Positions 5,128-40,330 of a stretch of DNA of 64,000 nucleotides are shown here, piece after piece. The translations under genes were made by a program, and so were the position numbers. The stretch spans positions 1 to 64,000 of IMG/VR virus record IMGVR_UViG_3300013426_000028, one strand, 5' to 3'. Every line of letters begins with the position of its first letter. The first letter of the stretch is position 1. Origin of the DNA: a virus (taxonomy: Duplodnaviria > Caudoviricetes). Below the pieces are notes generated by a model. It worked only from the letters and a program-made list of their open reading frames with translations. It did not search any database and was not told the DNA's origin.

Positions 5128-5158
5128 AAGAAGGAATGAAATATTTCCTTCTTTTTTT
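5128..5158 (+). terminator. Intrinsic terminator ending the structural module
   Basis: AAGAAGGAA-loop-TTCCTTCTT plus T-run. Confidence 0.75.
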
Positions 5159-8313: not shown

Positions 8314-8337
8314 TTAGTAAAGGAGAAAATATAATAT

Positions 8338-9384: not shown

Positions 9385-9391
9385 TTAATAT

Positions 9392-9892
9392 ATGGCAGCA
9401 TCAAGTCTAAAAAAATGTGATGGATGCGGTCAGTTCATATTAGGCGAAATAAGAATCTTTGAAGGAAAAAAGTATTGTCAATCCTGTTATGAAAAATTAA
9501 TACAAGAAAGAAAAAACAAGGAAGAAACAAAATCTTCCTTGTATGCTTGTATTAAACAAGAATTTGATGTATCAGACCTACCTCCTGAAATAACTTATAA
9601 ATTAGATAGGTTATTAGCATCAGGAAAAACTCTTAAAGATGTTCAACTTGTATTATGGTATTATTATAAAATATTAGGTAATAGTCATAATAATTTATAT
9701 ATAATTGATCGTGTTGTGAATGAACAATATGATAAAGCAATAGAATATCTTAAAAAGACGTATCAAAAGAAACAAATTAATGATACAAAAACAAAAGAAC
9801 AAATTGTAGGTAATGATAGAATTGTAAAAATCAATAGGAATGATAATTCTCAAAGATTTAAGAATTTAGGTTACAAGATGGAGGATTTATAA
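9392..9892 (+). CDS. Zn-finger replication protein (possible helicase loader/accessory)
   Basis: CDGC..CQSC; lies directly before the helicase. Confidence 0.5.
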   Translation: MAASSLKKCDGCGQFILGEIRIFEGKKYCQSCYEKLIQERKNKEETKSSLYACIKQEFDVSDLPPEITYKLDRLLASGKTLKDVQLVLWYYYKILGNSHNNLYIIDRVVNEQYDKAIEYLKKTYQKKQINDTKTKEQIVGNDRIVKINRNDNSQRFKNLGYKMEDL

Positions 9893-9895
9893 ATT

Positions 9896-11719: not shown

Positions 11720-11732
11720 GGGGTTATGAAGT

Positions 11733-12863: not shown

Positions 12864-12868
12864 ATTAT

Positions 12869-13900: not shown

Positions 13901-13912
13901 GAGGTTAGCAAA

Positions 13913-14404
13913 ATGAGAACAAATAGTATTGAAATTTGTAAAATACATCTTGATTTTGATGCTTTACAAAATTGGCGAGATGCAGAGCACGATAATATTC
14001 CTATCAGTTGTTATCTTGCATTTTATAAAGCATGTGGACTTATGTCTTATATAAAAGATAATTTTTCCGAAAACGAAAATAATCAAGTCTGTGCTGTAAA
14101 TAATATTTTATGTAATTTTACCACAATGAAGAAAATTAAAAATTTTATTGTAAATAATTGGGAAACATTTAATATTGATTTATTAGGTGATGAACAAGTT
14201 GTTTGGATAAAAGGCGAACGTAAAGAACAACGTAAACGTCCTAAAAAAAGAAGATCTGAAATAAGACATAGCGTCGACTTAGATTTTGCAAATTATTGTC
14301 CTGGTCTTGATGAAGAATTAGAAGATGATGTTATTACATTGGTTAAATATGAAAAGTTTGATGAAGTTATTGATGCCGACATTAAAGAAAAAGAAGGTGA
14401 ATAG
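13913..14404 (+). CDS. Hypothetical protein
   Basis: AGGAGG RBS, in operon. Confidence 0.6.
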   Translation: MRTNSIEICKIHLDFDALQNWRDAEHDNIPISCYLAFYKACGLMSYIKDNFSENENNQVCAVNNILCNFTTMKKIKNFIVNNWETFNIDLLGDEQVVWIKGERKEQRKRPKKRRSEIRHSVDLDFANYCPGLDEELEDDVITLVKYEKFDEVIDADIKEKEGE

Positions 14405-14406
14405 TT

Positions 14407-14928
14407 ATGGTAGAAGTGAAACATTATAAGCACAATAAAGTTGCTCAATTCTTATATGACTATTGTTTAAAAGGAAGTAAATTCTTATATAAATATCCTG
14501 TTATTTATTGGATATTACAATTTACTTGGGGTATCATCTATACTATCATTGGTTCTATTATTGGTTTCTTTGCTTGGATGATAGGCGGCGAAGGATCTTC
14601 TTTCCACCGTGGATATGTTATTATGATTGGTGATAACTGGGGAGGATTAGAATTAGGTTTAGGTGGTCTAGTTGCTTATAATATGGGCGAAGAATGGACC
14701 GATCATTGTAAAAAACACGAAATGGGACACTGTTATCAAAATGCCTTATTAGGACCATTTGCAATATTCCTTGTAATGATTCCTAGCGCTGTTAGATACT
14801 GGTATCAAAGAATCAGAACTAAAAAAGGATTGCCTAATAAAGATTATGAAAGTATTTGGTTTGAAGGTTGTGCCACTGAAATCGGCGAAACCTTATATGG
14901 TTATTTGAAAGAAGAAACAAACAAATAA
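14407..14928 (+). CDS. Membrane protein with HExxH zincin-like motif
   Basis: Hydrophobic helices, KHEMGH..Q, downstream WFE. Confidence 0.55.
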   Translation: MVEVKHYKHNKVAQFLYDYCLKGSKFLYKYPVIYWILQFTWGIIYTIIGSIIGFFAWMIGGEGSSFHRGYVIMIGDNWGGLELGLGGLVAYNMGEEWTDHCKKHEMGHCYQNALLGPFAIFLVMIPSAVRYWYQRIRTKKGLPNKDYESIWFEGCATEIGETLYGYLKEETNK

Positions 14929-14931
14929 GAT

Positions 14932-15062
14932 AAATTCAAGGCTTCTGCTTTGTATTTATATATTAAGTTGATGCGCGATGTTATGAATAATAGCATTGAC
15001 GACATCAGATTATCGAAAGATAAGCAAGGAGATTGGACTTGGTGTCCTATATCACACTTGGG
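14932..15062 (+). ncRNA. Candidate small multi-stem structured RNA in the 3' trailer of the replication operon
   Basis: Stems with G-U pairs (GATGTTAT/ATAGCATT, TGATG/CATCA), TTATC-GAAA-GATAA GNRA hairpin, GGAC/GTCC hairpin. Confidence 0.35.
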
Positions 15063-15098
15063 AAATAGTAGCTCAAAAGGGCTGCTATTTTTTATTTC
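15063..15098 (+). terminator. Intrinsic terminator
   Basis: AATAGTAGCTC-AAAA-GGGCTGCTATT plus T-run. Confidence 0.75.
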
Positions 15099-15141
15099 AG
15101 TTATCTACAAATTGAAGTCAACTGAAAATATGAAAATTTAC

Positions 15142-15169
15142 TTGACAATGGGGAATATTTCTATATAAT
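15142..15169 (+). promoter_or_regulatory. Promoter of the dnaE N-part
   Basis: TTGACA-N16-TATAAT. Confidence 0.75.
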
Positions 15170-15270
15170 AAATATGTAAAAAGTACCCCAAATTACTTTT
15201 TTTGGTAAAAACGTTTTAGAAAAATACTTTGACCCCTGTTGGGGTGTGTTATAGAAAGGTGGAGATTTTA

Positions 15271-18200
15271 ATGTATTGTAGTTTACATAATCATACAGCA
15301 CAAGGTTCTAATGTGAAATTTCTCGATAGTATTAATAGACCAGAAGATATGGTGACATACGCTTTAGAATTAGGTTATAAAGGTATGGCATTTACTGATC
15401 ACGAATGTTTATCTGCGGCTGTTTCTATTATAAAAGTAAGAGACCAAGTGCAAAAAGAGCATCCTGATTTTAAATTCATTTTTGGAAATGAAATATATTT
15501 AATAGATGAAACCGAGGTACATAACACAGATAACTTTTTCCATTTCATTTTATTAGCAAAAGATCTTGAAGGTTGGAAACAATTAAGGACGTTATCTAGT
15601 CGTGCCTGGGATAGATCTTACATGTATAAAGGAATTTTAAGAACTCCTACGACATATCAAGACATAGAAGAAGTTATAGGTTCAAATCCAGGTCATATTA
15701 TAGCAAGTAGTGCGTGTATCGGTGGTGAGTTAGGAGTTACTATTCTCAACCACAATAAAGAAAGATTAAATAAATTTGTTAATTGGTGCATAAAAATTTT
15801 TAGTAAAGATAATTTTTACATTGAATTACAACCAGCTTTATATGAGGAACAACAACTTGTTAATAAAGTATTAATTAATTTATCTAAATTTTTTGGGTTA
15901 AAATATATTTTTACAACAGATAGTCATTATTTAAAAAAAGATGATATGTTATTACATTCTGTATTTTTAAATAGTAAACAAAGTAAAGATAGAGAAACAG
16001 AAAAATTTTATAAATATACTTATTTAATGTCAATCGAAGAAATTACCGAAAATTTAAAACAAAACGGATTATCTGATAGTATGATTAATGCTGGTTTTGA
16101 TGCAACAATGGAAATATATAATAAAATCGAAAATTATGATTTTAGACATAGCACAATTGTTCCAGCACCATTTTTACCACAATTTGAAGTTATTCATTTG
16201 TTTAAAAATTATTATGATAAATATCCTTTTATTAAAAAATTTGCTTATAGTAATGTTGACCAAGATCGTTATTTATTATATCAAATAGAACAAGGTTTTA
16301 TTACAAAAAAACAAGAATTATGTGATTTACGCGTAGAACGTATTAATATAGAATTAGATATTATTGATTATATTAGTAATCGTTTGCATCAAAGTCTCAG
16401 TGCTTATTTAAACTTAACAGTAGATATGGTTAACACGGCTTGGCAAGTAAGTTTAGTGGGATGCGGACGTGGATGTTTTACGCCAGGTCAAAAAGTTCAA
16501 CTTTCAGACGGAACGTTTGAGAACATTGAAAAGGTACAAAAGGGAACAAAAGTACTTACTCATTTAGGTAATTATAAAGAAGTGTATGGAACTTTAAATT
16601 ATGATGTAAATGAAACTCTTTATAAAATTACAGGAATTGGAAGAGAGACTATTACGTGCACAAACAATCATAAATTTTGGGGAATAAAAAACAGTATTTG
16701 TAATGCATCAAGTTCAAAAAATCAATATTGTAATAAATTCTGCAAACGAAATAAAAATTGTCAATATAAGCAATTTCATGATTCTTGTGAATGGATAGAA
16801 GCTCAAGATTTAAAAGTTGGCGATTATATAACTGTACCTAAAAATCATTTTTTAGAAACTAAAACATCAGTGATAGATTTAAGTGATTATGTTCCTAATA
16901 TTACCATTATTAATAATGATTATATATATTATAGAAACGAAGAAAACAAATATTTAGGTTATGATGAACAATATATAATAAATAGATATATTAATATTTC
17001 TCCAGATTTTTGTCGACTTATAGGTTATTTTATAGGAAATGGTTATACAGTAATTAATGAAAAAACAAATAATTATAAAGTTTCTATTTCATTTAATAAA
17101 GCTCATAAAGAAAAGATCGAAGATTGTGTTAATATTATTAAAGGTTTTTATAAAGGCACAATTAATATTAAGGAACACACAACAAAACAAGTTGTTTCTA
17201 TAACTATTTATAATAAATGTTATGCTTATATTTTTAATAAGTTATGTGGTGAGTTAGCACAAAATAAACATGTTCCTGTATTTATTTTTGAAAATAAAGA
17301 TAGAGTTGTACAATGTTTAAAAGGTTTAATGTTAACAGACGGAAGTATTTCTATAGAAGAACATTCTGCTAAATATTCAACAATAAGTTCAGAATTATAT
17401 TATCAAGTTAATTTTATGTTTAGTTTAATTAATATTTATTCCCGTATGTATACTAGTACAAAGAAGAAAAATAATTGGAAACCTGAATTAATAAATAAAA
17501 TAACCAGTGCTGATTTTGATGTAATGATGCAAACCTTATTTCCTGAAGTCAAAATGGCGAAACAAATATACTACTCTAATAGGGTGAAACAAGATGAAAC
17601 ATATTTCTATATTCCTATAACAAAAATAGAAACATTAGAATATCGAGGAAAAGTATATGATATATCTGTAATGGATGATACGTCTTATACTATAAATGGT
17701 GTAGCAGTTCACAATAGTGCATGTGGCTTCTATGTAAATTATTTAATAGGTGCAACGCAAGTAGACCCAATTAAATATAACTTACCATATTGGCGTTTTG
17801 CTAATAAAGAACGACTTGATTTATTTGATATTGATGAAGACTATCAGCCTGAAAAAACAGAAGAAATTATTCAATTATTAAGAGATAAATATGGAAAGGA
17901 TAATGTTCTTAATTGTGCAACGTTTAAGACAGAATCTTTAAAATCAGCAGTGTTAACTTCTTGTAGAGGTAGAGGGATTAACAATGACGAAGCACAAGCT
18001 ATGGCATTAATGGTGCCACAACATCGAGGCAAAACATATACATTACAACAATGTGAATTTGGCGATGAAGAACAAGGCTTTGATCCTGTACCTGAATTTA
18101 TTAACAAATTAAAAAGTTACGAGGGATTATATGAAACTGTTAAAATGATTGAAGGATTATCAACTAATTGTTCTATTCACGCAAGTGCTTTATATGTATT

Positions 18201-18933
18201 TAATAATAGTTATCTAGAATATAATAGTTTAATGAAGGCTCCTAATGGTACACGTATTACCGCATTTAATATGCACGACAGTGATGATTTAGGCGCATTA
18301 AAAATGGATGTTTTAAGGACCGACGCTCAAAGTAAAATGGCAAAATGTTTAAGTTTATTATTAAAAGATAATCAAATCGAATGGCAAGGTTCTTTAAGAG
18401 CAACCTATGATAAATATTTGCATCCAGACGTATTAGATTATGATAGTTCAGATATGTGGCATAAAGCCTGGAATGGCGAAATTGAACAATTGTTTCAATT
18501 TGAAACTCAAGTTGGTGGGGTTTGTATTAAAAAGTCTAGACCTACTAATGTATTAGAATTAGCTGAAATTAATTCTATTATGAGATTACAAAGTGAGTCA
18601 GGCGAACAACCAATTGATAGATATGTACGTTTTAGAAATGACCCAGAACAATGGTATCAAGAAATGCGTGATAATGGTTTAAACGAACATGAAATTTCAA
18701 TTTTAGAAAAATATCTTAAAAAAAGTTATGGTGTATCAGGTTCTCAAGAAGTATTGATGCAAATTCTAATGGATCCTGAAGTTTGCGGTTTTACTTTAAG
18801 AGAGGCAAACGACGCTCGAAAAGCGATTGCAAAAAAACAAACAAAAAAATTAATTCAATTAAAGAAAGACTTTTTTGAAAAAGGAAGTCTTACACCAGGT
18901 TCAGATAATAAGATTGTAGAACTAGATTTTTAG
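15271..18933 (+). CDS. dnaE: DNA polymerase III alpha, N-terminal part (PHP, palm, part of fingers), intein-containing
   Basis: PHP motifs LHNHT, TDH, GNEIY, TTDSHY; GRG|S; FDIDED; IHAS; KMDVL; LFQFE; SYG. Start at ATG 15271 after AAAGGTGGAG. Confidence 0.92.
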   Translation: MYCSLHNHTAQGSNVKFLDSINRPEDMVTYALELGYKGMAFTDHECLSAAVSIIKVRDQVQKEHPDFKFIFGNEIYLIDETEVHNTDNFFHFILLAKDLEGWKQLRTLSSRAWDRSYMYKGILRTPTTYQDIEEVIGSNPGHIIASSACIGGELGVTILNHNKERLNKFVNWCIKIFSKDNFYIELQPALYEEQQLVNKVLINLSKFFGLKYIFTTDSHYLKKDDMLLHSVFLNSKQSKDRETEKFYKYTYLMSIEEITENLKQNGLSDSMINAGFDATMEIYNKIENYDFRHSTIVPAPFLPQFEVIHLFKNYYDKYPFIKKFAYSNVDQDRYLLYQIEQGFITKKQELCDLRVERINIELDIIDYISNRLHQSLSAYLNLTVDMVNTAWQVSLVGCGRGCFTPGQKVQLSDGTFENIEKVQKGTKVLTHLGNYKEVYGTLNYDVNETLYKITGIGRETITCTNNHKFWGIKNSICNASSSKNQYCNKFCKRNKNCQYKQFHDSCEWIEAQDLKVGDYITVPKNHFLETKTSVIDLSDYVPNITIINNDYIYYRNEENKYLGYDEQYIINRYINISPDFCRLIGYFIGNGYTVINEKTNNYKVSISFNKAHKEKIEDCVNIIKGFYKGTINIKEHTTKQVVSITIYNKCYAYIFNKLCGELAQNKHVPVFIFENKDRVVQCLKGLMLTDGSISIEEHSAKYSTISSELYYQVNFMFSLINIYSRMYTSTKKKNNWKPELINKITSADFDVMMQTLFPEVKMAKQIYYSNRVKQDETYFYIPITKIETLEYRGKVYDISVMDDTSYTINGVAVHNSACGFYVNYLIGATQVDPIKYNLPYWRFANKERLDLFDIDEDYQPEKTEEIIQLLRDKYGKDNVLNCATFKTESLKSAVLTSCRGRGINNDEAQAMALMVPQHRGKTYTLQQCEFGDEEQGFDPVPEFINKLKSYEGLYETVKMIEGLSTNCSIHASALYVFNNSYLEYNSLMKAPNGTRITAFNMHDSDDLGALKMDVLRTDAQSKMAKCLSLLLKDNQIEWQGSLRATYDKYLHPDVLDYDSSDMWHKAWNGEIEQLFQFETQVGGVCIKKSRPTNVLELAEINSIMRLQSESGEQPIDRYVRFRNDPEQWYQEMRDNGLNEHEISILEKYLKKSYGVSGSQEVLMQILMDPEVCGFTLREANDARKAIAKKQTKKLIQLKKDFFEKGSLTPGSDNKIVELDF
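16474..17715 (+). mobile_element. Intein with LAGLIDADG homing endonuclease (414 aa)
   Basis: Starts CFTPG after GCGRG; block B TCTNNH; LIGYFIGNG and LKGLMLTDG; ends VYDISV...VHN followed by Ser. Confidence 0.93.
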
Positions 18934-18988
18934 AAGGAAAAATATTTCCTTCTTTTTTTATTGACATTTTTAAATAATTAGATATACT
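18932..18988 (+). promoter_or_regulatory. Terminator plus promoter at the end of the dnaE N-part
   Basis: AGAAGGAA/TTCCTTCT hairpin with T-run (near-identical to 5128..5158), then TTGACA-N16-TATACT. Confidence 0.75.
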
Positions 18989-19020
18989 TATAAATGTAAA
19001 AAGAAACGAGGAAAACTGAT

Positions 19021-21396
19021 ATGACAAAAAATGAATATTCTTTAATTAAAAATTATTCATACAAAGATTATTGTGATTATTTAAATAATAAATATGATAA
19101 TTATAATAAAGAAGGGTTATTCAAACATCATTTTTATGAGAATGAAAAAGCTAATTTATCAAACCCTGAAATTGCAAAATATGCAACTATAGAAGAAAAA
19201 GAAACTGTTGTTTATTGTAATTATTTAGAACATTTATTATTACATATTATGATAGGCGAACAAACTGATCCTAGAAAACGTTTAGGATTAGGAGGAGCGA
19301 TAAATTATATTATTCCTGATATTGAGAATTATTATAATAGTAACATTAAAAAATATAATGATAGTTATTATAATTGCTTAATTGATAATAGAGAACTATT
19401 TGATATTCTCGTAGCAAGATGTAATCAAGCTGTTGAAAAATTACAAATTGTATTAGAATCAAATATTTCTTTATATAAAGAAGTTGAATATAATCTTAAT
19501 GTTAATTATAAAGCATTGGTTGTTTTAGGCACAGGACTAGGTAAAACTACTACAGCTTTAGAATATTTAAAAAACAATAAATGTAGAGCATTGGTTATTG
19601 GTCCTAATAATATTATTAAAACTGGTTGGGAAGAATATTCTGACTGGTGTGATACTACTACATATCAAAGTTTTGCAAATAAATATAAAGATATTGATTA
19701 TAGTCAATATGGTTTGGTTATTTTGGATGAAGTTCATCATATAGGTTACGATGAAAGTACAGACACAGGAGCTAAAGTTTGGAGCAAGGGAGTTCATTAT
19801 ATCTTAGATCAAGGTATTAAAGTTTTAGGATTAACAGCAACTCCAGAGCGTAGCGATAGCATCAATGTAGGACAAACCATTTTTAAAAATTGTGTTTGTG
19901 AAGGAAAATCTATTGAAGATGCCATTGAACAAGGTATTATTCACCCTTTCTCTTATATTACCGCATTATATAACACAGATGGTATTATAGAAGAATGTAG
20001 AAAATGTGATAATAAAGAATTAGTTGGGCAACTAGATATTGCTTTAAACAATACTCCTAAATTAAAAACAATTTTATCAAATAGAATGCCTGCTGGTAAA
20101 AGAAAAGGTATTGTTTTTATTCAAGATATTGCTGATGAAGACAATATTAAAGATATTTTAAAGGATGCTTTTCCTAATATTCCTTGTAAAGCTATTCATT
20201 CAAGAATGACAGACGAAGAAATTAAAAATAATCGTGCTTGGTTTGAAAACACAGACGAAGGATTTTTGTTGGCAGTTAACATGATTTCAGAAGGTGCTCA
20301 TTATAATGGGGTCAATACATTGATCATGTTTAGAAAAACTAATTCATATTTAGTTTTCACTCAACAATTAGGTAGAATTGTTACATTGGTGAAAAACGAA
20401 AATCCTAATGCTATTGTATTTGACTTAGTTAATAATATAGATAATATTGAATATCATAATGTTAAATTAGATCAAAAAACTCATTCTATTGGTAAAATCG
20501 TTAAAGTGTTAGAAAAAACAGAAGCATTTAAGTCTGAACAGATTATTGTTGCTGAAGAATGTAGAAATATTGTCAAAACAATCCGAGATATTAAAAATTA
20601 TGAAGATGATTCTTGGCAAGATTGGGAAATTAATATTCTTAGACAATATTTTGAGACTAAAGGACCAGATTATTGTTTAAAGCTTATCAATGAGCAATGG
20701 TATAGCTCAAAAAGAACGCTGAGTAGTATTTCAAACTATGCTTTTAAAATTGGATTGCGTTCTGATAAGAGTTGGACTCTTGAAGAATTTGAAATTTTAA
20801 AAAAATATTACGTAATAGAAGGAAGACAAATTCAAAAAAGATTAATTAATAGAAGTTGGTATAGTATTAGAGCCCAAGCATATAAAATGGAATTGAAAAT
20901 GTCTACTGATGCTATGGAATGTAAACCATGGACAGAAGAAAATACAAAAATATTATATCAACAATATCCTATACATGGTCATAATATCATAGAGTTAATA
21001 AACTATGGCTATAACCTTAACCAAATTGATCAAAAAGCTCGTAGAGAAGGTTTAAAATTTAATAATAAAATGTTTTGGGCTAAATGGACAAAAGAAGAAG
21101 ATGATTTTTTAAAAAATATTTTTAATAATGAAGATAAGATCAATAGAAACAAAATTGTAAATATTTTTCAAAATAAATATCCTTATAGAACAGAAAGTTC
21201 TATAAAAGCAAGAATGAAAACATTAAGATTATCTAAAATAGACAATATAAAATTTTGGACAAAAGAAGAGGAAGAAATAGTAAAAAAATATTATCCCAAA
21301 ATAGGGACTAAATGTTCAGAATTAATACCTAATCATTCCAAACAAGCTATTGTAAAAAAAGCTCAATGCTTGAATGTATCTAAAGAATGTATATAA
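19021..21396 (+). CDS. SF2 (DEAH/ResIII-like) helicase with N-terminal HNH-like domain and C-terminal Myb/SANT-like WTxEE repeats
   Basis: GTGLGKT, DEVHH, TATPER, QQLGR; N-terminal KHH...CNYLEHLLLH; about five W(T)xEE repeats. Confidence 0.8.
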   Translation: MTKNEYSLIKNYSYKDYCDYLNNKYDNYNKEGLFKHHFYENEKANLSNPEIAKYATIEEKETVVYCNYLEHLLLHIMIGEQTDPRKRLGLGGAINYIIPDIENYYNSNIKKYNDSYYNCLIDNRELFDILVARCNQAVEKLQIVLESNISLYKEVEYNLNVNYKALVVLGTGLGKTTTALEYLKNNKCRALVIGPNNIIKTGWEEYSDWCDTTTYQSFANKYKDIDYSQYGLVILDEVHHIGYDESTDTGAKVWSKGVHYILDQGIKVLGLTATPERSDSINVGQTIFKNCVCEGKSIEDAIEQGIIHPFSYITALYNTDGIIEECRKCDNKELVGQLDIALNNTPKLKTILSNRMPAGKRKGIVFIQDIADEDNIKDILKDAFPNIPCKAIHSRMTDEEIKNNRAWFENTDEGFLLAVNMISEGAHYNGVNTLIMFRKTNSYLVFTQQLGRIVTLVKNENPNAIVFDLVNNIDNIEYHNVKLDQKTHSIGKIVKVLEKTEAFKSEQIIVAEECRNIVKTIRDIKNYEDDSWQDWEINILRQYFETKGPDYCLKLINEQWYSSKRTLSSISNYAFKIGLRSDKSWTLEEFEILKKYYVIEGRQIQKRLINRSWYSIRAQAYKMELKMSTDAMECKPWTEENTKILYQQYPIHGHNIIELINYGYNLNQIDQKARREGLKFNNKMFWAKWTKEEDDFLKNIFNNEDKINRNKIVNIFQNKYPYRTESSIKARMKTLRLSKIDNIKFWTKEEEEIVKKYYPKIGTKCSELIPNHSKQAIVKKAQCLNVSKECI

Positions 21397-21411
21397 AAAT
21401 AAATAAAGATA

Positions 21412-21439
21412 TTGACTTTTAAATATAATCTTATATAAT
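21412..21439 (+). promoter_or_regulatory. Sigma-A-type promoter
   Basis: TTGACT-N16-TATAAT. Confidence 0.7.
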
Positions 21440-21464
21440 AAATAGTGTAAAGGAGAATAAAGTT

Positions 21465-21836
21465 ATGAAATTAGAAAAAAATAAAACTTATATTTATAAT
21501 GGTCCTTCAACAAAATTATTAGACAGAACAATTGCTGTTGCGATGGGAATTTGTAGAAATTATGAAGAATATGTAAATCTAGTTAGAAATCAAAAATATC
21601 ATTTTGATGACGAGGGGAATCAAAGCTTTGAAAATCCTGGAGAAAAAATTAATTCAGAACCTTATGTTGAATTAAAAACAGGAGATAAAATACAAATTCA
21701 AGCATTAGGACATGAAAAAAACACAGCGAAAGTAAGGTTATTTAAGCCTCCTTTTAATCAAATAATGTTTGGTAATTTTATAGACATACCAACTGATTTA
21801 AGTAATATAATTGATTATTTAGTTGAAGATAAATAG
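21465..21836 (+). CDS. Hypothetical protein
   Basis: AAGGAG RBS behind promoter. Confidence 0.6.
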   Translation: MKLEKNKTYIYNGPSTKLLDRTIAVAMGICRNYEEYVNLVRNQKYHFDDEGNQSFENPGEKINSEPYVELKTGDKIQIQALGHEKNTAKVRLFKPPFNQIMFGNFIDIPTDLSNIIDYLVEDK

Positions 21837-21861
21837 TGTGTAAAAAGAAAGGAACCAAATT

Positions 21862-22029
21862 ATGAAAACTATTAGAATATTTATTACGCTTAAGCAAAAT
21901 GATATAATTAATATTCCTGATGACACATCCGATAGTGAAATTAATGCAATAGTTGATAATTATGCTAGTGAGTTAGCAGAAAACGCAGGAATTTCAAAAT
22001 ATGAAGTTGAGTGGCAAGAAGATTGGTAA
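21862..22029 (+). CDS. Small acidic hypothetical protein (55 aa, not in ORF track)
   Basis: GAAAGGA RBS; MKTIRIFITLKQ...EWQEDW. Confidence 0.5.
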   Translation: MKTIRIFITLKQNDIINIPDDTSDSEINAIVDNYASELAENAGISKYEVEWQEDW

Positions 22030-22057
22030 CGTTTAATTATAGAAAGGAAAAAACATT

Positions 22058-22444
22058 ATGAAAAAAGAAGAATTATTTAAAGCAGACACATTTGATTATA
22101 TTTGTAAACTAATCAAAGAAAAATTAACAAAATCTATGAAAGGTAATAAACAAGTAAGTATTTTAGAAATAAAAGCATACAATTTATCAACAAAATCAAA
22201 TGATTTTGAAAAAGAATTACAAATAAAATTTGCTGTAGATCTTAACCCAGAAGATTTTTGTTCAACGGTATATATTGACTCTGTTTGGTACTATGATTTA
22301 TTTGATGTAAAAGAATTTGCTTCAATTGTTGCAAGCAATGTTTTAAAATCATTAAGTGGTGAAAGTTCTGTTAGAAATATAAGCATTGCTGAAAAAGATA
22401 ATGATAGCGAGATATTTAGTGTTTATACAAGAAATTATAAATAG
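22058..22444 (+). CDS. Hypothetical protein
   Basis: GAAAGGA RBS. Confidence 0.55.
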   Translation: MKKEELFKADTFDYICKLIKEKLTKSMKGNKQVSILEIKAYNLSTKSNDFEKELQIKFAVDLNPEDFCSTVYIDSVWYYDLFDVKEFASIVASNVLKSLSGESSVRNISIAEKDNDSEIFSVYTRNYK

Positions 22445-22460
22445 AAAGAAGGTTGTCAAC

Positions 22461-22661
22461 ATGAAGAATAAAAGAAGTATTTTATTGATTGTCTTAACGA
22501 TTGTGATTATGTTTCTATTAGGAGCTTTGATCGTTTTGGGTAGTTGCACTATTCTTTCTTACCCTTGGAATGTTATATCAACTATGTGTTTAAGTCTTGT
22601 TGTTGGTTTAGCAGGTAATAGAGTGCTAAATATTATTATTGATAAAGAAGGGAAAAATTAA
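22461..22661 (+). CDS. Small two-TM membrane protein
   Basis: Two hydrophobic stretches; start at ATG 22461. Confidence 0.5.
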   Translation: MKNKRSILLIVLTIVIMFLLGALIVLGSCTILSYPWNVISTMCLSLVVGLAGNRVLNIIIDKEGKN

Positions 22662-22662
22662 A

Positions 22663-22935
22663 ATGATAAATAATAAGAAAAAAGAAGAAATTGAAACTTT
22701 GTTAGAAGAGACATTTGTTGATAGCTCTGATAAATTGGATTGGTTATCTGAAAAAGGATTTGTTGAAGCTGACAAATGTTATTATTATTGTTATTCTGAT
22801 AAAAATGGTAATTACATTGGTAACGATAGTGATGATGATCCTTATGACATATTAGAAATACTTTTAAAACATATTGATTATGATGAATTTATGACAAAAT
22901 TTAATGAAGAATTTGGAGAAGAAAACAATGGATAG
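22663..22935 (+). CDS. Acidic hypothetical protein
   Basis: Tightly packed ORF, GAAGGG RBS. Confidence 0.5.
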   Translation: MINNKKKEEIETLLEETFVDSSDKLDWLSEKGFVEADKCYYYCYSDKNGNYIGNDSDDDPYDILEILLKHIDYDEFMTKFNEEFGEENNG

Positions 22936-23086
22936 TATCAATTGGCAACAAAAATATATGGACGAACATATTAAAGTTCAAGATTTAGAGTCTAAAGTTG
23001 AAATTTATGAAAATATTACAATTCCTAGATTGAAAGAAGAACTAAAATCTTTAACAAAAATTATTGATAAATTAAAAAAACTATAA
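22928..23086 (+). CDS. Small coiled-coil protein
   Basis: GGAG RBS, heptad pattern. Confidence 0.45.
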   Translation: MDSINWQQKYMDEHIKVQDLESKVEIYENITIPRLKEELKSLTKIIDKLKKL

Positions 23087-23099
23087 GGAGAGCAACCAT

Positions 23100-23426
23100 A
23101 TGCGTAATGATTTTGATTGGGCAGCTGTTGCAATAAGTGTTGCAGCTAGAAATGCTGCTGAAAGACAAAAGTTAGCAGAATTAAATAATTTAAAAACAAA
23201 AGCCGAAGAATATTCTACTTTAGCTAATGCTACAAAAGGGCAAGAAAAAGAAAAATATTTAGCCTTAGCAGAACTTTATACTGATAAATATAATAAAGAA
23301 GTAAAAGCTTATAATGAAGCTATTGAGAAACAAAAACAAAGCGACCTTATATGGGGTGTTGTTGGTATTATTGCTGCGATAATTATTTTGATAGTAATAT
23401 TAGTCATGTTGTCAAATAGCAACTAA
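23100..23426 (+). CDS. Coiled-coil protein with C-terminal TM anchor
   Basis: AAGGAG RBS; hydrophobic C-terminus. Confidence 0.55.
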   Translation: MRNDFDWAAVAISVAARNAAERQKLAELNNLKTKAEEYSTLANATKGQEKEKYLALAELYTDKYNKEVKAYNEAIEKQKQSDLIWGVVGIIAAIIILIVILVMLSNSN

Positions 23427-23457
23427 AAGCAAGTAAATAAAAAAAGGAAAATAGAAT

Positions 23458-24036
23458 ATGGACGCTAGTAAATTTGTTGAGCAAAAAGAAAATTTAGAAA
23501 AAGTATTATTTGACATAGAAAAGTATGACACTGGTTATAGTCCGTATGGTAGTTATAGTTGTATTAAAGATTTCAAACACAATTTGAATCTTGATATTAA
23601 AGCTATGAGACTATATGTTACATTAGCAGATGCTTGGAATAAACAATTTAATAATGAAGATAAGCAATTAAATAAATATATAGAAGTATCATTCTGTGTT
23701 GAAAGAGGAATTAGTTTTTCATTAACAGGAGAAGCAAGTAATATTTTCTATGATTATATCTATGGTTCTCTTAGTGATACGTTTATATTTATAGATTCTA
23801 TGATAAAAAAATTACTTGAACCATTTGATACAAGTATTGAGTATTTTAATAAAATCTTGCATAATGTTCAATATAAAAGATATGAAGGTGCAGGTTATGT
23901 ATATGATATTGATAAAGTGAATGACATTCTATGTAGTATAATTACATTCCTTAAATCAGACAATTTAAAAAATATTAATCCAGGCATTGAAGCTTATATT
24001 GAAGGATTGATTAAATGTGCGGATGTAGAAGAATAG
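23458..24036 (+). CDS. Hypothetical protein, paralog of 6613..7170
   Basis: Shared motifs. Confidence 0.55.
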   Translation: MDASKFVEQKENLEKVLFDIEKYDTGYSPYGSYSCIKDFKHNLNLDIKAMRLYVTLADAWNKQFNNEDKQLNKYIEVSFCVERGISFSLTGEASNIFYDYIYGSLSDTFIFIDSMIKKLLEPFDTSIEYFNKILHNVQYKRYEGAGYVYDIDKVNDILCSIITFLKSDNLKNINPGIEAYIEGLIKCADVEE

Positions 24037-24048
24037 GAGATAATATAG

Positions 24049-24234
24049 ATGAAAAAATGTGATTTTTGTAATTATTATGATCCATTAATCAACCGCTGCG
24101 GATGCTATCAGTCTATTAAAAACTGTTCTGAAGCTATTAAAACCTATGCACAAGTATTAATGAGCCAAAATCAAAATACTAAAACTAAAAATATTAATAT
24201 TAACAAAAGCAATAATAAAAAGAAAGGAAAATAG
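24049..24234 (+). CDS. Small Cys-rich protein
   Basis: CDFC..C.C..C; AGGAG RBS. Confidence 0.5.
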   Translation: MKKCDFCNYYDPLINRCGCYQSIKNCSEAIKTYAQVLMSQNQNTKTKNININKSNNKKKGK

Positions 24235-24236
24235 TA

Positions 24237-24797
24237 ATGAGTAAAATAAAAATTGATAGATTTACGAAAGAATTATTAGATGATATAATTTTAAAAAGCA
24301 AGGAAGATGACGAACTTATTAAAAGTTTTTGTTTAGAATTTGTATATAATGACGAATATGAATGTTGGATTACTACAACTTATCAAAGTGGTAAAACAGA
24401 CGATGAACGATATTTCGATAAGACTATGAACCAATTAGCTCTAGACCAATGTCCACTCAAAGGAGGTTGTATTGTTCTTCCGGTCGATTATGAGAGTGTT
24501 ATTGATCCAAACATTGTTGAAAATTTTCCAGGCTGGTCGAAAACGTATACGTTAGATTTAAGCAATATAGGAATTTTAACTGATAAAGAAAAAGAATATT
24601 TAAAAGCTGTAATTGAACCATATAGATTACTGGTCTCAGATATAAGCAAGATAGTCGGTTGGAATCACGATCCAGAACAAATTTTTGTTTATTTAGATTG
24701 TGGAGATCCAATTACCTTTCCGATCATTTTACCAGAATTAAAATTTTCAGGAATGGAATTAAATAAGAATTATACTTTAGAAGATTTAGGAATATAA
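24237..24797 (+). CDS. Hypothetical protein with LT..EKEYL...YTLE.LG module
   Basis: Module shared with 39472..40299. Confidence 0.55.
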   Translation: MSKIKIDRFTKELLDDIILKSKEDDELIKSFCLEFVYNDEYECWITTTYQSGKTDDERYFDKTMNQLALDQCPLKGGCIVLPVDYESVIDPNIVENFPGWSKTYTLDLSNIGILTDKEKEYLKAVIEPYRLLVSDISKIVGWNHDPEQIFVYLDCGDPITFPIILPELKFSGMELNKNYTLEDLGI

Positions 24798-24811
24798 AGG
24801 AGAATAACATT

Positions 24812-25093
24812 ATGAAAAAAGAAAAAATAACTTTTAGTGAATTTTTAGAAAACGATTATGCAGTAATTCATTGTCATACAAGAGAAGAGTTCGATTATCT
24901 TATGGACAAATTAATAGCAAGAACACCATATAATATGTATTATAATCCTAATAAAGGAATTGAGGCTGTATGGTATGATTATGGCGCAGAAGGTTGTGTG
25001 CAAAACAACGGAGTAGGAGCGGACTATCATTTTTATTCGCAACTTGATAATTATACTATTTATGAGTTCGAAGAATTAGATTTTAATAAATAA
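24812..25093 (+). CDS. Stand-alone 'IHC.T.E...YEF..D' module protein
   Basis: KIT.SEF...IHC.T.E...IYEF.E.D. Confidence 0.6.
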   Translation: MKKEKITFSEFLENDYAVIHCHTREEFDYLMDKLIARTPYNMYYNPNKGIEAVWYDYGAEGCVQNNGVGADYHFYSQLDNYTIYEFEELDFNK

Positions 25094-25109
25094 CAAAGAG
25101 GATAAAAAC

Positions 25110-25379
25110 ATGAAAATTAAATTAAATGAATTTTGGCACAGTGAAGAAAAACTAGCTATTCATTGTGACACCGAAGAAAAAGCAGATAATTTATTAAAAG
25201 CATTTGATAGACTAGGCAAGAAATGGTGTGAAAATGTTTCTTATTTAGAGACAAATTGTTATTCACATTATGGGAAGATGTCTTGTTATTCCAATAATAG
25301 GTGTATTTCCGATTATAATTATTATGAAAACAACGGTTATAAAATCTACGAATTTGATGAAGTAGATTTAGATGAATAA
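25110..25379 (+). CDS. Stand-alone 'AIHC.TEEKA...YEF..DL' module protein
   Basis: Same module as the C-terminus of 38090..39454. Confidence 0.6.
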   Translation: MKIKLNEFWHSEEKLAIHCDTEEKADNLLKAFDRLGKKWCENVSYLETNCYSHYGKMSCYSNNRCISDYNYYENNGYKIYEFDEVDLDE

Positions 25380-25399
25380 AAGCCCTCTTTTATTTAGTG

Positions 25400-25463
25400 G
25401 AACTTGTGCGTAAAAAGCATAAGTTCTTTTTTTACTTGACTTTTATAAATATTTATATATAAT
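25400..25463 (+). promoter_or_regulatory. Terminator plus promoter driving the dnaE C-part unit
   Basis: GAACTTGTGC/GCATAAGTTC hairpin with T-run, then TTGACT-N16-TATAAT. Confidence 0.7.
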
Positions 25464-25491
25464 TTAAGTAAGTAAGAAAGGGTGATATCAA

Positions 25492-25725
25492 ATGAAAAAG
25501 ATTATTATTATTTGTAACGACAAAGTTATTTCAGAACACGAAACATCAGATGTATATTATGATGCAATGATGAAAGAATGCGAAGGACAACTAAATGAAG
25601 GAACTCTCGACAGTAGAGTGTTTGAATTCAATGAAAAAGAACAAGCTAAAATCACTACATATATAGTAAAAAATCTCACATATAAATTAATAGATAAGAA
25701 AGAACCAGAGAGAGTGATAAAATAA
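25492..25725 (+). CDS. Hypothetical protein
   Basis: GAAAGGGTG RBS; stop is 1 nt before the dnaE C-part ATG. Confidence 0.55.
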   Translation: MKKIIIICNDKVISEHETSDVYYDAMMKECEGQLNEGTLDSRVFEFNEKEQAKITTYIVKNLTYKLIDKKEPERVIK

Positions 25726-25726
25726 T

Positions 25727-27283
25727 ATGGCAAGGCAAGAATTTCTTAATTATATATGGGAACACTGCATAAAGCCACAGATATCGTACAGTTTTAGCTT
25801 GAACCATACACTCCCATATTCCGTAATAGCAGTCCAAGAAATGAATTTAGCAACGCGTTGGAACCCTTTGTATTGGTCTTGTGCTTGTCTTTGTATCAAC
25901 GCAGGAAATCCGGAAACAGGATTTGAAGAAGATGACGATGAGCAAGATGAGGAAGAAAAGAAAACTAAATCAGGTGCACCATCATATGGTAAAATTTCAA
26001 AAGCTTTAACTGATTGCAGGCTTCACGGTGTAAATATTGAATTTCCAAACATTAATACATCTCAAGCAGATTTTGTACCTGATATTGAAAACAACAGCAT
26101 CTTATATAGTTTAAAGACTGTTACAAATGTGAGCGATGATTTATATTCACAAATCATTCAGAATAGGCCTTATTCATCAATAGAAGATTTCTGTTCTAAA
26201 GTATCTGTTACACCAGCACAAATGTCTAGTTTAATTAAAGCTGGTTGCTTCAATTCTTTATATAAGATATCAAGACGAGCAATTCTCTATGCTTATTTCA
26301 ATTATTTAGCAAATCAAGAAATAATCCTTAAAAAAACATTGAATTTATCTCATTTAAAGAAAGCTTTGTCTCTTGGTGAAAAATTTCCAGGTTATGAAGA
26401 TAAAATTCAATTATTATATTTTAAAGTATACATTGATAAAAATCAAAAATTAGATCCTAGTAAAGAGGCATTCTCACTTAATGCTTTATTAAACAAGAAA
26501 TGCTATAAACTTACGGAAGAATCTTGTATCAGCTTCTTTAATGTGAAAGTTGCGCCTTCATTAGATTTAAGAAAAGGCGATTATGATTATTTAGACGGAC
26601 ACACAATATTATTAAAAGCATCAAGCTTTACGAAATTCTATGATGCTCAAATGAAAGAGCTAACTGATTATCTAAATTCCGAACAAGGTAAATTAGCATT
26701 TCAAAAAATGGAAAAAGATGCTTTTATAAAAGATCTTATTGAAAAATATGCAGAAGGAACCGAAGCTGACTGGGATATGCAAACAATGAATTTCTATCAA
26801 TCAGAACACGCTCTTGCTAGAATGTCCGAAATTAAATATAATATTAAGGACTTTAATAAACTTCCAGAAACACCTATTACGCGTAAATATATAGGTAAAG
26901 ACGGAGAAGAAAAAGAGACAGCTGAAACTTGTGCAATATGTGGCACAGTTGTAGATGCTAATAATGTTAAACACGTAGTAAGTTTATTAACCAGATATGG
27001 AGTGGTTAATGTTAAATTATTCTCACAAGCATATTCTAATTTTAGTCAAAAGATAAGTATTGTTGAAGATGCCACCAAAAAGAAGAAAACAGTTTTAGAC
27101 GACTCTTGGTTTAAAAGAGGAACGAAATTAATTATTCACGGGTTCAGAAGAGAAAATATGTTTGTTGCTAAAACTGAATATGTTAATAAAGTTCCTAAAA
27201 TGGTAGGATTAATAGAAAGTTTAGATACAAACGGAAATGCTTCTATTAGATACACAAGAAAGAAGAAAATTAGTCAAGAATAA
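25727..27283 (+). CDS. dnaE: DNA polymerase III alpha, C-terminal part (rest of fingers, HhH, OB fold)
   Basis: YSFSLNH..PYS, PLYW..A.L, P.IN.S, R.PYSSIEDF, LIKAGCF, OB-like ICGTVVD. Confidence 0.88.
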   Translation: MARQEFLNYIWEHCIKPQISYSFSLNHTLPYSVIAVQEMNLATRWNPLYWSCACLCINAGNPETGFEEDDDEQDEEEKKTKSGAPSYGKISKALTDCRLHGVNIEFPNINTSQADFVPDIENNSILYSLKTVTNVSDDLYSQIIQNRPYSSIEDFCSKVSVTPAQMSSLIKAGCFNSLYKISRRAILYAYFNYLANQEIILKKTLNLSHLKKALSLGEKFPGYEDKIQLLYFKVYIDKNQKLDPSKEAFSLNALLNKKCYKLTEESCISFFNVKVAPSLDLRKGDYDYLDGHTILLKASSFTKFYDAQMKELTDYLNSEQGKLAFQKMEKDAFIKDLIEKYAEGTEADWDMQTMNFYQSEHALARMSEIKYNIKDFNKLPETPITRKYIGKDGEEKETAETCAICGTVVDANNVKHVVSLLTRYGVVNVKLFSQAYSNFSQKISIVEDATKKKKTVLDDSWFKRGTKLIIHGFRRENMFVAKTEYVNKVPKMVGLIESLDTNGNASIRYTRKKKISQE

Positions 27284-27314
27284 CACTTGACTTTTTCTTT
27301 TATTTATATATAAT
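27272..27314 (+). promoter_or_regulatory. Fused terminator/promoter
   Basis: AGTCAAG/CTTGACT hairpin; TTGACT-N16-TATAAT. Confidence 0.65.
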
Positions 27315-27343: not shown

Positions 27344-29764
27344 ATGGCAACAGAACCAAGTAAATTATTAGGTCAAGGAATTACAGCTAAAGTAACCCTT
27401 AACAACTATCGTTTTCCTCGTTATGGACACGAATCTGGCAAGTATGCTATTGTTTTATTAAGAGTTGAAAAATTATTGGAAGGAGAAATTCCTGATGATT
27501 TTAAAACTATTATGGGAGAATATGTGATTGTAGCAACAGGAAATATGCCTAAATTAAAAGAAGGCGTTGAGTACAATTTTATGGGAACTTTAACCAAGAA
27601 TAATAAATACGGGCTTCAATATGAAGTTATCTCGATGCATTTAGATTATAATTTAGAAAATAAAGAAGATCAAAGAAAATTCTTCAGTTTCTTTATGACT
27701 GATAGACAAATAGATTTATTATTTGAACAAGTGGAAGATCCTATTGCTTGTTTAAAAAATAAAACAGTTGAAGAATTATTAAAAGTAAAAGGTATTGGTC
27801 CAGTAACGGCTCGAAGAATGTGTGAACGATATGAAGAATGTAAAGACAATAGTAGAGCATATGTTGAACTAAAACAATTTGACCTAACAAAACGTGCTAT
27901 TGATCGTTTAATTAGTCAATATGGCTCGGCTGATGTTGCGGTTGAAAAAGTAATTGGTAATCCATATATTTTAATTAAAGAAGTTAGAGGTTATGGCTGG
28001 AAAAAAGCTGATGAAATAGCTAAAAGACAAGGATTTACAAATGATTGTAAAGAAAGAGTATTAGCATACGCTCAATATTATTTAGAGACACAAGGGGACC
28101 AAAATGGTAACTCGTGGGTATCTATTAATGATTTGTGTTCAAATGTGGCTGCTGAATGCGTTCCTGTGTCAAATGAAAACTTAGTTAATTGGTTAAAAGA
28201 AGTTATGCTTCCAGATGTTTTATATACTGAATTTTATAACGAAAAATACTTTAATCATAATGATAAAGTAGAAGATCCAAAAGCTTGGTTATATTTTGAC
28301 CAAAAAACAAGAGAAGTTGGATTATTAAGCATTAAAATTCTAGAAGATGAAATTGCGCGTCATTTACAACGAATTAAAAACGCTGAACCTGTCTTTAAGT
28401 ATGATAAAGAAGAATGTCAAAAGATTATCGAAGAAGTTGAAGAGGAACAAGGTTTTAAATATACAAATGAACAAATTAAAGCCATTTGGATGATGTTAGA
28501 TAATAACATTGGTATCTTAACAGGTTCTGCTGGTACTGGTAAATCTAACACATTAACGGCTGTTGTGCGTATATTCGATCATTATGATATGAATATTAAA
28601 CAATGTGCTTTGTCTGGACGGGCATCAAGTAAATTAACTGAAATTACTGGTGTTGAAGGTAAAACTATTCATAGATTATTAGCTTACTCAACGGATGCGG
28701 ACCAATTTTCGTTTAATGAAAAAAGACCTTTACACGATGATTGTATTATTCTTGATGAAGCTTCAATGGTTGGTGGAGAATTGTTCTTATCGTTAATTAG
28801 TGCGGTTAAAAATGGCGCTAAGTTTATTATGGTAGGAGATATTCAACAATTAGAATGCATTGGACTATGTAATGTATTAAAAGATTGTTTATCTTCAGGT
28901 TATATTCCTTCTGTGATGTTAAGTAAAATCCATCGTCAAGCAGCTAAATCTGGTATTATTTCTCAATCTTTAAGAGTATCCGCAGGAGAACCTTTAGTTC
29001 AAAACACATTTGAAGGAACTGAAACTCGTGGAGATTTGTTAGATTTTCATATCATTGCATCAAATGATAATAGAATGACACAAGAAAATATCATTAAAAG
29101 ATTTAAAGAATTATATTTCAATCGTAAAATTCCAGCAGAAGATATTCAGGTATTAGTACCGATGAGAGTTCGAGGAGATATTTCTTGTAGAGCCTTAAAT
29201 GAAGTTATTCAATCCATTGTAAATTCTACTATGACATTTAATGCTGTAACGGTTAAATATATGGATAGTGGGACAAAATATGAGGTTACATATAAACCAC
29301 GTGATAGAGTAATTGTAACACGAAATAACTATAAAGCATTAACACCTAATGGTAAAGAAGTTGCAATATTTAATGGTAATGTTGGTTACATTAAAGATAT
29401 TGATATAAAAGAAAGATCTATGACTATTGTGCTTCCAGAACAAGGAGAAGTTATTCTTGGAGAAGAGCAATGGGGCGATATTCAATTAGGATATGCTATT
29501 ACAATCCATAAAAAGCAAGGTGATAGTATTCCTTATGCAATTATAGGTTTAGATACAAGTTGTTATGCTTTATATTCAAAAGAATTAGTATATACCGCAA
29601 TTACTCGTGCAAGAACAGATTGTACCCTTGTAACACAAGCAAAAGCCATTAATCAAGCAGTCAAAATTAGTCGTATCAGAACAAAACAAACGTGGTTAAA
29701 AGAGTCTTTAAAGAAATTATATATGAATTCAATGGAAGCCATAATGGACGATAATAAAAATTAA
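27344..29764 (+). CDS. recD2: RecD2-like SF1B helicase
   Basis: HhH VKGIG, NPY.L, GSAGTGKS, TIHRLL, DEASMV, GDIQQL, IHRQA, YAITIHK.QG, YTAITRA. Confidence 0.9.
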   Translation: MATEPSKLLGQGITAKVTLNNYRFPRYGHESGKYAIVLLRVEKLLEGEIPDDFKTIMGEYVIVATGNMPKLKEGVEYNFMGTLTKNNKYGLQYEVISMHLDYNLENKEDQRKFFSFFMTDRQIDLLFEQVEDPIACLKNKTVEELLKVKGIGPVTARRMCERYEECKDNSRAYVELKQFDLTKRAIDRLISQYGSADVAVEKVIGNPYILIKEVRGYGWKKADEIAKRQGFTNDCKERVLAYAQYYLETQGDQNGNSWVSINDLCSNVAAECVPVSNENLVNWLKEVMLPDVLYTEFYNEKYFNHNDKVEDPKAWLYFDQKTREVGLLSIKILEDEIARHLQRIKNAEPVFKYDKEECQKIIEEVEEEQGFKYTNEQIKAIWMMLDNNIGILTGSAGTGKSNTLTAVVRIFDHYDMNIKQCALSGRASSKLTEITGVEGKTIHRLLAYSTDADQFSFNEKRPLHDDCIILDEASMVGGELFLSLISAVKNGAKFIMVGDIQQLECIGLCNVLKDCLSSGYIPSVMLSKIHRQAAKSGIISQSLRVSAGEPLVQNTFEGTETRGDLLDFHIIASNDNRMTQENIIKRFKELYFNRKIPAEDIQVLVPMRVRGDISCRALNEVIQSIVNSTMTFNAVTVKYMDSGTKYEVTYKPRDRVIVTRNNYKALTPNGKEVAIFNGNVGYIKDIDIKERSMTIVLPEQGEVILGEEQWGDIQLGYAITIHKKQGDSIPYAIIGLDTSCYALYSKELVYTAITRARTDCTLVTQAKAINQAVKISRIRTKQTWLKESLKKLYMNSMEAIMDDNKN

Positions 29765-40299: not shown

Positions 40300-40330
40300 A
40301 AATATTCAGAAATAAGGAGAAATATAAAAA

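Follow-up and report, generated by a model that had tools for sequence, protein, structure and literature searches.

The closest precedent for the locus studied here is the genes-in-pieces class of T4-like phages, in which mobE lies in nrdA of Aeromonas phage Aeh1, mobA lies in the T4 topoisomerase gene, and seg43(25) and IC-UTS lie in gene 43 (PolB) of phages 25 and 44RR; for gene 43, it is debated whether the split was the work of the endonuclease or preceded its arrival (PMC2988022). In cyanobacterial split DnaE (Ssp/Npu split intein), as in the 'fractured genes', each half bears part of a split intein, and trans-splicing joins the two (Dassa 2009, PMC2677866), and a minimal split DNA polymerase III (Pol III) alpha has been predicted for group 2.2 jumbo phages (Iyer et al. 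2021, PMC7824862). T4-type phages also carry PeSL promoter-terminator cassettes (PMC2839356, PMC4122927). Here, we analyzed the replicative Pol III alpha gene, dnaE, in a 64,000-nucleotide (nt) stretch of viral DNA (hereafter, the window), which is the first 64 kb of the 95.6-kb IMG/VR viral record IMGVR_UViG_3300013426_000028 (GC content about 29%; record estimated to be ~69% complete). In the window, dnaE consists of two distant genes, designated the N-half and the C-half. The comparisons presented below support the view that this replicative Pol III alpha is truly split at the protein level, inside the fingers domain and with no intein at the break, and we assign a probability of roughly 0.8 to the reading that the two genes encode a functional two-piece enzyme of the YorL/SPbeta type that would assemble non-covalently. 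In such an enzyme, two polypeptides would associate without a covalent link, the N-half contributing the PHP, palm, thumb and most of the fingers, and the C-half completing the fingers via three helices.

In the list of open reading frames (ORFs), the N-half starts at TTG 15229 or ATG 15271 and stops at 18933, and the C-half spans 25727-27283; 6,793 nt separate the N-half stop from the C-half ATG. The N-half gave Pfam matches to PHP (PF02811, E 3e-26), an intein with a LAGLIDADG domain, the palm (PF07733, E 2e-39) and the fingers (PF17657), whereas the C-half matched HHH_6 (PF14579), a helix-hairpin-helix (HhH) domain. In P0001 numbering, the PHP metal ligands H20, H22, D57, H58, E88, H105, C163, D231 and H233 are conserved, and the catalytic Asp triad D867, D869 and D1027 is present in the N-half. 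An earlier account made from the letters alone (the sequence-only reading) had placed the break inside the fingers domain of Pol III alpha with little or no sequence lost, and both points held. The N-half covers positions 14-161 of the 166 positions of the fingers profile, and the cut falls in a fingers-domain loop. When the halves were aligned by BLASTP with unsplit YorL of SPbeta, the N-half aligned through YorL residue 828 and the C-half from residue 829, so that no residue is lost at the cut and the two halves together cover a YorL-type DnaE seamlessly. About five loop residues are even duplicated, each half carrying its own version (PGSDN in the N-half, MARQE in the C-half). After PGSDN, the N-half has seven further residues (KIVELDF) and then stops, and the C-half opens on native sequence from its Met onward; the absence of a split intein at the break, also claimed previously, was confirmed, since a seven-residue tail and a head of Met plus native sequence exclude one by length alone. 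Moreover, the 95.6-kb record, which is ~69% complete, contains a single palm and a single HHH_6 domain, and neither PolA nor PolB was found in it.

The place of the cut was also assessed on structures. By hidden Markov model (HMM) alignment of the fused relative L004 with Taq Pol III alpha (3E0D/2HPI), the cut maps to a loop near Taq residues 791-796, ahead of the helix leading to GFNKSH. We take this loop to lie inside the fingers domain, ~40 residues before the beta-binding domain. When the C-half was modeled alone with AlphaFold2, the predicted local distance difference test (pLDDT) score was ~90 from residue 84 onward, but only 46-64 in the first three helices (residues 2-58), and residues 62-82 form an acidic disordered linker. 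In the AlphaFold2 model of the fused relative P0239, the same three helices reach a pLDDT of 80-96, and the cut corresponds to a five-residue loop between helices 343-356 and 362-377. In a Foldseek search with the C-half model, every match at E <= 0.001 was a full-length Pol III alpha chain, and the model aligned over 435-501 columns to 7PU7, 4IQJ, 2HPI and 5FKU. From these models, we infer that the three helices are most likely an integral part of the fingers that would dock on the N-half, with the linker tethering the remainder of the C-half.

To compare the junction among relatives, 212 related loci from IMG/VR, GTDB genomes and metagenomes were gathered with an alignment query (a single C-half protein query matched nothing in IMG/VR), and each junction was read. 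The same cut point was present in at least 25 loci, some of which are duplicates between collections. In most split relatives, the halves are adjacent, with stop and ATG 0-5 nt apart and in differing frames. The distance is -8 to 5 nt in L010-L015, the L017-L034 group, L146, L151 and L200, 32 nt in L145, 62 nt in L085 (Clostridium sp. CAG:343), 1.0 kb in L141 and L142, 5.5 kb in L084, 6.3 kb in L005 and 6.8 kb in the window. The gene is fused in SPbeta-like prophages and in the close relatives L004, L006, L007, L033 and others, the junction in L033 reading ..GGQRARKEFLDYVW. In a search of 5.8 billion proteins, C-halves of ~500 aa were recovered as separate proteins by the dozen, with identities of 40-97% (closest cluster, P0003, 97% identical) and in many cases on contigs of 130-145 kb; Met-Ala-Arg opens 36 of 76 C-halves of this length. 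Among the 120 closest N-half clusters, 53 (about 44%) stop 5-26 residues past the FF/FYxKG helix, and the other 67 continue as fused proteins. No cultured phage in the INPHARED set has a C-half above 34% identity; in Enterocloster phage PMBT24 (INPHARED, outside the SPbeta group), the annotated gene is fused. A large clade of uncultured gut and rumen phages carries the cut as an old state under selection, usually with the two genes abutting.

The catalytic Asp triad, the PHP ligands and the RK..KK finger motif were retained in 52 of 52 aligned split N-halves, as in the fused forms, and D867, D869 and D1027 were invariant in 52 split and 60-61 fused relatives. When the window was compared with L084, the ratio of nonsynonymous to synonymous substitution rates (dN/dS) was 0.146 for the C-half (517 codons), 0.035 for the RecD2-like neighbour, and 0.16-0.32 for seven matched small ORFs of the gap. 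These data support the view that both halves are intact and under purifying selection, as judged from the retained residues for the N-half and from dN/dS for the C-half, consistent with the previous description of two long, complete ORFs.

A possible agent of the split, missed by the sequence-only reading, was found at the junction itself in relatives. In four relatives (L084, L136, L141 and L142), a free-standing LAGLIDADG_2 (PF03161) gene of 330-334 aa lies exactly at the junction. In L141 and L142, a 330-aa LAGLIDADG_2 ORF (E 2e-16) is the sole content between the halves; it starts 20 nt past the N-half stop, and the last base of its stop codon is the A of the C-half ATG. Homologs of this endonuclease (57-60% identity) lie immediately upstream of the C-half in L084 and L136, the window's two closest relatives (C-half 94% and 91% identical, respectively), and the L084 ORF overlaps the C-half by 8 nt and holds its Shine-Dalgarno sequence. 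No trace of the gene was detected in the window or in the whole 95.6-kb record. The window is an empty-site allele: it differs from L084 by the presence or absence of a 1.0-kb endonuclease indel between flanks that are 92-96% identical. Over C-half codons 1-50, L084 and L136 are only 40-73% identical to the window at the nucleotide level, compared with 87-100% beyond about codon 55-70, and their diverged head is of the L141/L142 type (..SIPHDISYSIEAVQEA). Homing with co-conversion would be expected to leave such a diverged head beside an endonuclease gene, and so would a target variant that resists cleavage. The 22 fetched loci with the 'PHD' C-head are all split, 4 with the endonuclease gene and 18 adjacent without it, the latter fitting loss of the element that left abutting halves. 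A LAGLIDADG element may either have created the split or have invaded a split already there; we lean slightly toward the proposal that it did one or the other and probably spreads the junction between phages by homing with co-conversion.

Several points count against the reading outlined above. A second polymerase may lie outside the record, because the record is only ~69% complete, and the docking of the three helices is read solely from the confidence of single-chain models. An Rfam search of the window and of the L141 junction, at the gathering threshold or at E <= 1, yielded no intron, ribozyme or other relevant match, but this is a weak negative, because the same search was also empty on HNH/NUMOD-bearing interruptions of relatives and missed the probable intron-type insertions in L110 and others; the earlier statement that no intron is visible stands as far as this insensitive search goes. 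With regard to the element, most split loci are adjacent and have no endonuclease gene, and the same loop is cut in L200 (a relative from soil, 30% identity), which has another C-head (MSSDNL..) and likewise no endonuclease gene; the LAGLIDADG element may have invaded a pre-existing split. These last two observations equally favor an origin without any mobile element, in which a stop and a new start arose in a permissive loop and the LAGLIDADG gene invaded the spacer later. We give this alternative somewhat less than even odds. The loop would be permissive in its own right, since so distant a relative as L200 is cut there with a different head, and the same ambiguity attends gene 43 of phages 25 and 44RR (reviewed in PMC2988022). 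However, the minimal layout of N-half, endonuclease gene and C-half leaves no other DNA, the endonuclease gene supplies the ribosome-binding site of the C-half and overlaps its ATG, the 'PHD' loci are split without exception, and the changes of state on the N-half tree (at least 11; see below) would be easier to obtain with a homing element. The element-free origin concerns the origin step only, and the two-piece enzyme stands either way.

The history of the junction was then examined by phylogeny. In the C-half tree, the split forms do not make up one clade, and a single origin was rejected by the approximately unbiased (AU) test (p = 0.0008), for a group that was defined after the tree had been viewed and with recombination making the tree a poor guide to junction history. 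A FastTree phylogeny built from representatives of 77 N-half clusters requires no fewer than 13 changes between fused and split, 11 of them forced by well-supported branches, and the window's nearest N-half kin, an intein-less allele aside, are fused. Repeated cutting and re-fusion of the loop would explain this, as would movement of the junction between phages by recombination, for which the endonuclease offers a mechanism. The L084 genes are mosaic in this respect. The N-half of L084 is 80-83% identical to that of L141 but 45% identical to that of the window; residues 1-51 of its C-half match L141 at 80% identity but the window at 61% (hand count on the alignment), whereas the remainder of the C-half has 87-100% nucleotide identity to the window. 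Suggestively, if in one case, the L084 N-half and docking helices would share an origin although they lie 5.5 kb apart. A tentative extension is that the split state might be 'infectious', with LAGLIDADG homing from a split donor converting the intact dnaE of co-infecting phages to the two-piece form, which would explain the at least 11 fused/split switches despite the constant Met-Ala-Arg junction. If so, the N-half and the three docking helices of the C-half would be a co-inherited interface pair.

The DNA between the halves was examined next (Table 1). About 14 plus-strand ORFs of at least 55 aa lie there, the small ones without a match in PHROGs, Pfam or PADLOC, and three strong sigma-70-like promoter matches were found at 18961, 21412 and 25436, in addition to one ahead of each unit; the previous count of three promoters was correct, and that of ~13 ORFs was nearly so. 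Terminator-like hairpins occur at 18932, 25399 and 27272, and the one at 18932 is indeed near-identical to that at 5128 (same stem and T-run, 2-nt loop indel), as had been remarked. At the 3' end of the N-half, identity between the window and L084 rises from ~60% in the coding body to ~97% from the last five codons through the hairpin and -35 box; because of this jump, the tail of the N-half is assigned to a terminator-promoter module common to both. Indels between the window and L084 have such modules at their limits. Near-consensus promoters, of families that recur throughout the window, stand at the head of the units, and terminator hairpins close the larger ones. The gap contents are unrelated between lineages: the window and L084 share the small-ORF array, and in L005, a 150-kb rumen-type phage contig, one 2060-aa BspA-type leucine-rich-repeat gene (L005 3738-9920) fills the gap. 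The gap would be a later build-up of shuffled early-gene cassettes between repeated terminator-promoter modules, and from these comparisons it is likely that the 6.8 kb accumulated after the split.

The sequence-only reading had instead proposed independently tunable halves, that is, an adaptive separation in which independent promoters would tune the two subunits separately. In its favor, the consensus scan places each half in a promoter-terminator unit of its own, and to this extent the halves may be called separately promoted, as judged from consensus matches only. Nonetheless, one repeated promoter family heads both units, and most relatives keep stop and ATG 0-5 nt apart, and both facts make co-expression likelier than independent tuning; moreover, the inserts are unrelated between lineages and variable between close relatives, as neutral cassette shuffling predicts. 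The tunable-halves claim was not sustained, and we consider adaptive separation improbable. It is far less likely still that the 791-aa helicase gene beside the N-half stop is an invading nuclease element that broke dnaE. That gene begins 87 nt past the stop with its own promoter-like site, but it is missing from L084, which shares both the split and the small-ORF array, adjacent-split relatives have no insert at all, and Pfam shows SF2 (superfamily 2) helicase and Myb domains only, with no HNH or other nuclease domain; the helicase was rejected as the invader on its absence from L084 and its lack of a Pfam nuclease domain.

Some further features of these cassettes were recorded. A near-consensus TTGAC(A/T)-16-TATAAT promoter family occurs in the window at 7157, 15142, 18953, 21410, 25428, 27285, 30394, 33299, 34494, 38032, 42214, 43824 and 44657, often with AAATAGTGTAA after it and a terminator hairpin before it. 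The helicase (19021-21396) has C-terminal Myb-like W-x-E-E repeats and matches the helicase region of the PADLOC Type IV methyl-directed restriction enzyme model (E 2.5e-12). Several small ORFs of the gap have paralogs (25155-25226 versus 39242-39313, 81% over 72 nt; also 25032-25095, 25318-25381 and 40238-40301), which share 3' ends coding for ..YEF.E(L/V)D(F/L).. and suggest duplicated cassettes. In the translations of 7300-18933, four replication proteins have acidic-aromatic tails: SSB-like (..GLGDMF), DnaB-like (..SGFDWDF), PD-(D/E)XK nuclease (..DPFDFDF) and the DnaE N-half (..VELDF). A few unrelated N-halves end in ..LEF, ..FDF or ..FEF (P0252, P0253, P0255). The ELDF tail of the N-half was considered as a docking peptide and down-weighted, since its last codons belong to the shared terminator-promoter module.

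Given that the lineage carries an intein elsewhere in dnaE, and that other relatives have HNH/NUMOD-bearing insertions 17 codons downstream, the possibility was also considered that a trans-splicing intron, a split intein or recoding reunites the halves in the RNA or the protein. This is very unlikely. The C-half is native directly after its Met, the N-half tail consists of seven residues of the terminator module, and split-intein parts (blocks A, B, F and G) are absent at the broken ends, the sole Hint/intein matches being aa 416-829. Also, the Rfam search gave no intron match even at E <= 1, and the adjacent relatives, whose frames differ, have no room for an intron in a stop-to-ATG gap of 0-5 nt.

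The palm intein itself is apparently intact, with Cys1, a TxxH-like block (TNNH), two LAGLIDADG motifs and a ..VHN|S end; the N-half allele P0168 (806 aa), 99% identical, has no intein. In L084 and L085, the same palm position holds inteins of similar size, and the L142 intein lies at the same GRG|C...HN|S point. The N-half tails of L141 (8960-8989) and L142 (8960-8988) start with Cys (..KN-CVSDKIS and ..KN-CDSDKIN, each followed by the stop) and faintly recall intein block A, which may be chance. In the more distant relatives L102, L110, L116, L117, L118, L122, L126, L129, L133, L157, L160, L182, L199 and L215, dnaE is interrupted ~17 codons downstream of the split site, after ..PQxG and just ahead of the YSF..H motif, with gaps of 0.2-1.4 kb. 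The L110 insert codes for an HNH_3/NUMOD (I-HmuI-like) endonuclease, and these interruptions are probably introns or free-standing endonuclease genes. In L002 (Staphylococcus phage SPbeta-like KT429160), dnaE_2 (482 aa) and dnaE_1 (828 aa) are annotated ~460 nt apart at 9013-13410, with a break that differs from the window cut in lying just after the palm GRGS motif.

The last alternative, that dnaE is decaying or that its layout is a misassembly, is barely credible: the window does come from a metagenomic viral contig that is 69% complete, but the assembly proved genuine in that the same arrangement is found in the independent assemblies L084, L005, L141 and L142, of which L084 (a Hadza gut metagenome-assembled genome contig labelled 'uncultured Bacilli', with flanks 84-96% identical to the window) rules out misassembly by having the same distant layout, and both ORFs are intact, with invariant catalytic residues and a dN/dS of 0.15.

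Table 1. Coordinates of dnaE and associated features in the window.
Feature	Coordinates	Strand	Description
Promoter-like site before N-half	15142..15169	+	TTGACA-16-TATAAT, 12/12; family D16
dnaE N-half	15271..18933	+	PHP, palm, thumb, most of fingers; 1220 aa including intein; C-terminal end ..FFEKGSLTPGSDNKIVELDF, then stop
Intein	16474..17715	+	414 aa (aa 416-829 of P0001), Cys1 ... HN|S, LAGLIDADG_3 domain, inserted in palm
Shared module	18919..18988	+	Last 5 codons of N-half (E-L-D-F-stop), terminator hairpin (18932-18953), promoter-like site (18961-18988)
Cassette 1	19021..21396	+	791-aa SF2 helicase (ResIII/Helicase_C) with Myb-like repeats; missing from L084
Cassette 2	21412..21836	+	Promoter-like site and 123-aa ORF; missing from L084
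Small-ORF array	21862..25379	+	About 11 ORFs of unknown function, largely common to L084
C-half unit head	25399..25463	+	Terminator-like hairpin (25399-25427) and promoter-like site (25436-25463)
77-aa ORF	25492..25725	+	Stop 1 nt before C-half ATG; in L084, endonuclease gene lies between 77-aa ORF and C-half
Empty homing-endonuclease site	25726..25727	+	LAGLIDADG_2 gene of L084/L136/L141/L142 ends on or over C-half ATG
dnaE C-half	25727..27283	+	518 aa; three finger helices with YSFSLNH (aa 1-58), acidic disordered linker (aa 62-82), HhH/beta-binding domain, C-terminal beta-rich domain
After C-half	27272..27314	+	Terminator-like hairpin and promoter-like site
RecD2-like helicase	27344..29764	+	Conserved downstream neighbour of C-half; also in L005 and L084

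On the reading of a two-piece Pol III alpha, a C-family replicative polymerase would tolerate a cut inside its fingers, with an active site shared by two chains. The fingers cut would then offer a naturally occurring design point for split polymerases and a way to test how separated halves find each other. One clade would hold every stage of gene fission, from a fused gene, through an endonuclease gene at the cut and abutting halves, to halves kilobases apart via cassette shuffling, and the origin of a multi-subunit enzyme by insertion of a selfish element would become directly testable. In current annotations, C-halves appear as 'hypothetical' or 'helix-hairpin-helix protein' and N-halves as 'partial DnaE', and because of these names such phages can be scored as having no intact polymerase. 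A literature search found no description of a split in the fingers loop, nor of a LAGLIDADG gene at such a split; the LAGLIDADG gene at the junction, the diverged C-half head beside the endonuclease gene and the cassette make-up of the 6.8 kb are new here.

Like the genes-in-pieces of T4-like phages, the window has an essential replication gene that some relatives keep whole but that is broken into two ORFs at a conserved region, with neither half lost; the free-standing endonuclease gene found at the break in the T4-type cases has its counterpart in four relatives of the window. Reassembly is presumed or shown in the T4-type cases and presumed here. The present case differs in that the gene is a C-family DnaE, the endonuclease is of the LAGLIDADG rather than the HNH or GIY-YIG type, and the hosts of the split are uncultured, low-GC phages of gut Bacillota; moreover, the halves are 5.5-6.8 kb apart in three lineages, and the window has lost, or never had, the endonuclease gene. 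YorL of Bacillus phage SPbeta (NC_001884 yorL) belongs to the same family and has the same domain order, with 34-46% identity over its full length to the two halves placed end to end, but it is one chain of 1305 aa, whereas the window encodes two chains plus an intein. Cyanobacterial split DnaE likewise consists of DnaE in two genes, and 'fractured genes' also have a free-standing endonuclease gene between the halves; unlike these systems, the window has no intein sequence at the ends and a different insertion point, and because neither broken end has intein sequence, its enzyme would have to stay non-covalent. The split of the group 2.2 jumbo phages resembles that of the window in involving a phage Pol III alpha-type enzyme, two distant genes and no splicing element. 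However, the jumbo-phage enzyme is reduced to a minimal catalytic module that lacks PHP and other domains, cut in the nucleotidyltransferase core and found alongside PolB, whereas the window has the full domain set, a cut in the fingers and no PolB in the record. Finally, as with PeSL cassettes, repeated terminator and early-promoter modules bound small accessory cassettes and mark the limits of indels between close relatives; the phage group and the sequence are different, and the modules described here lie inside a split essential gene.

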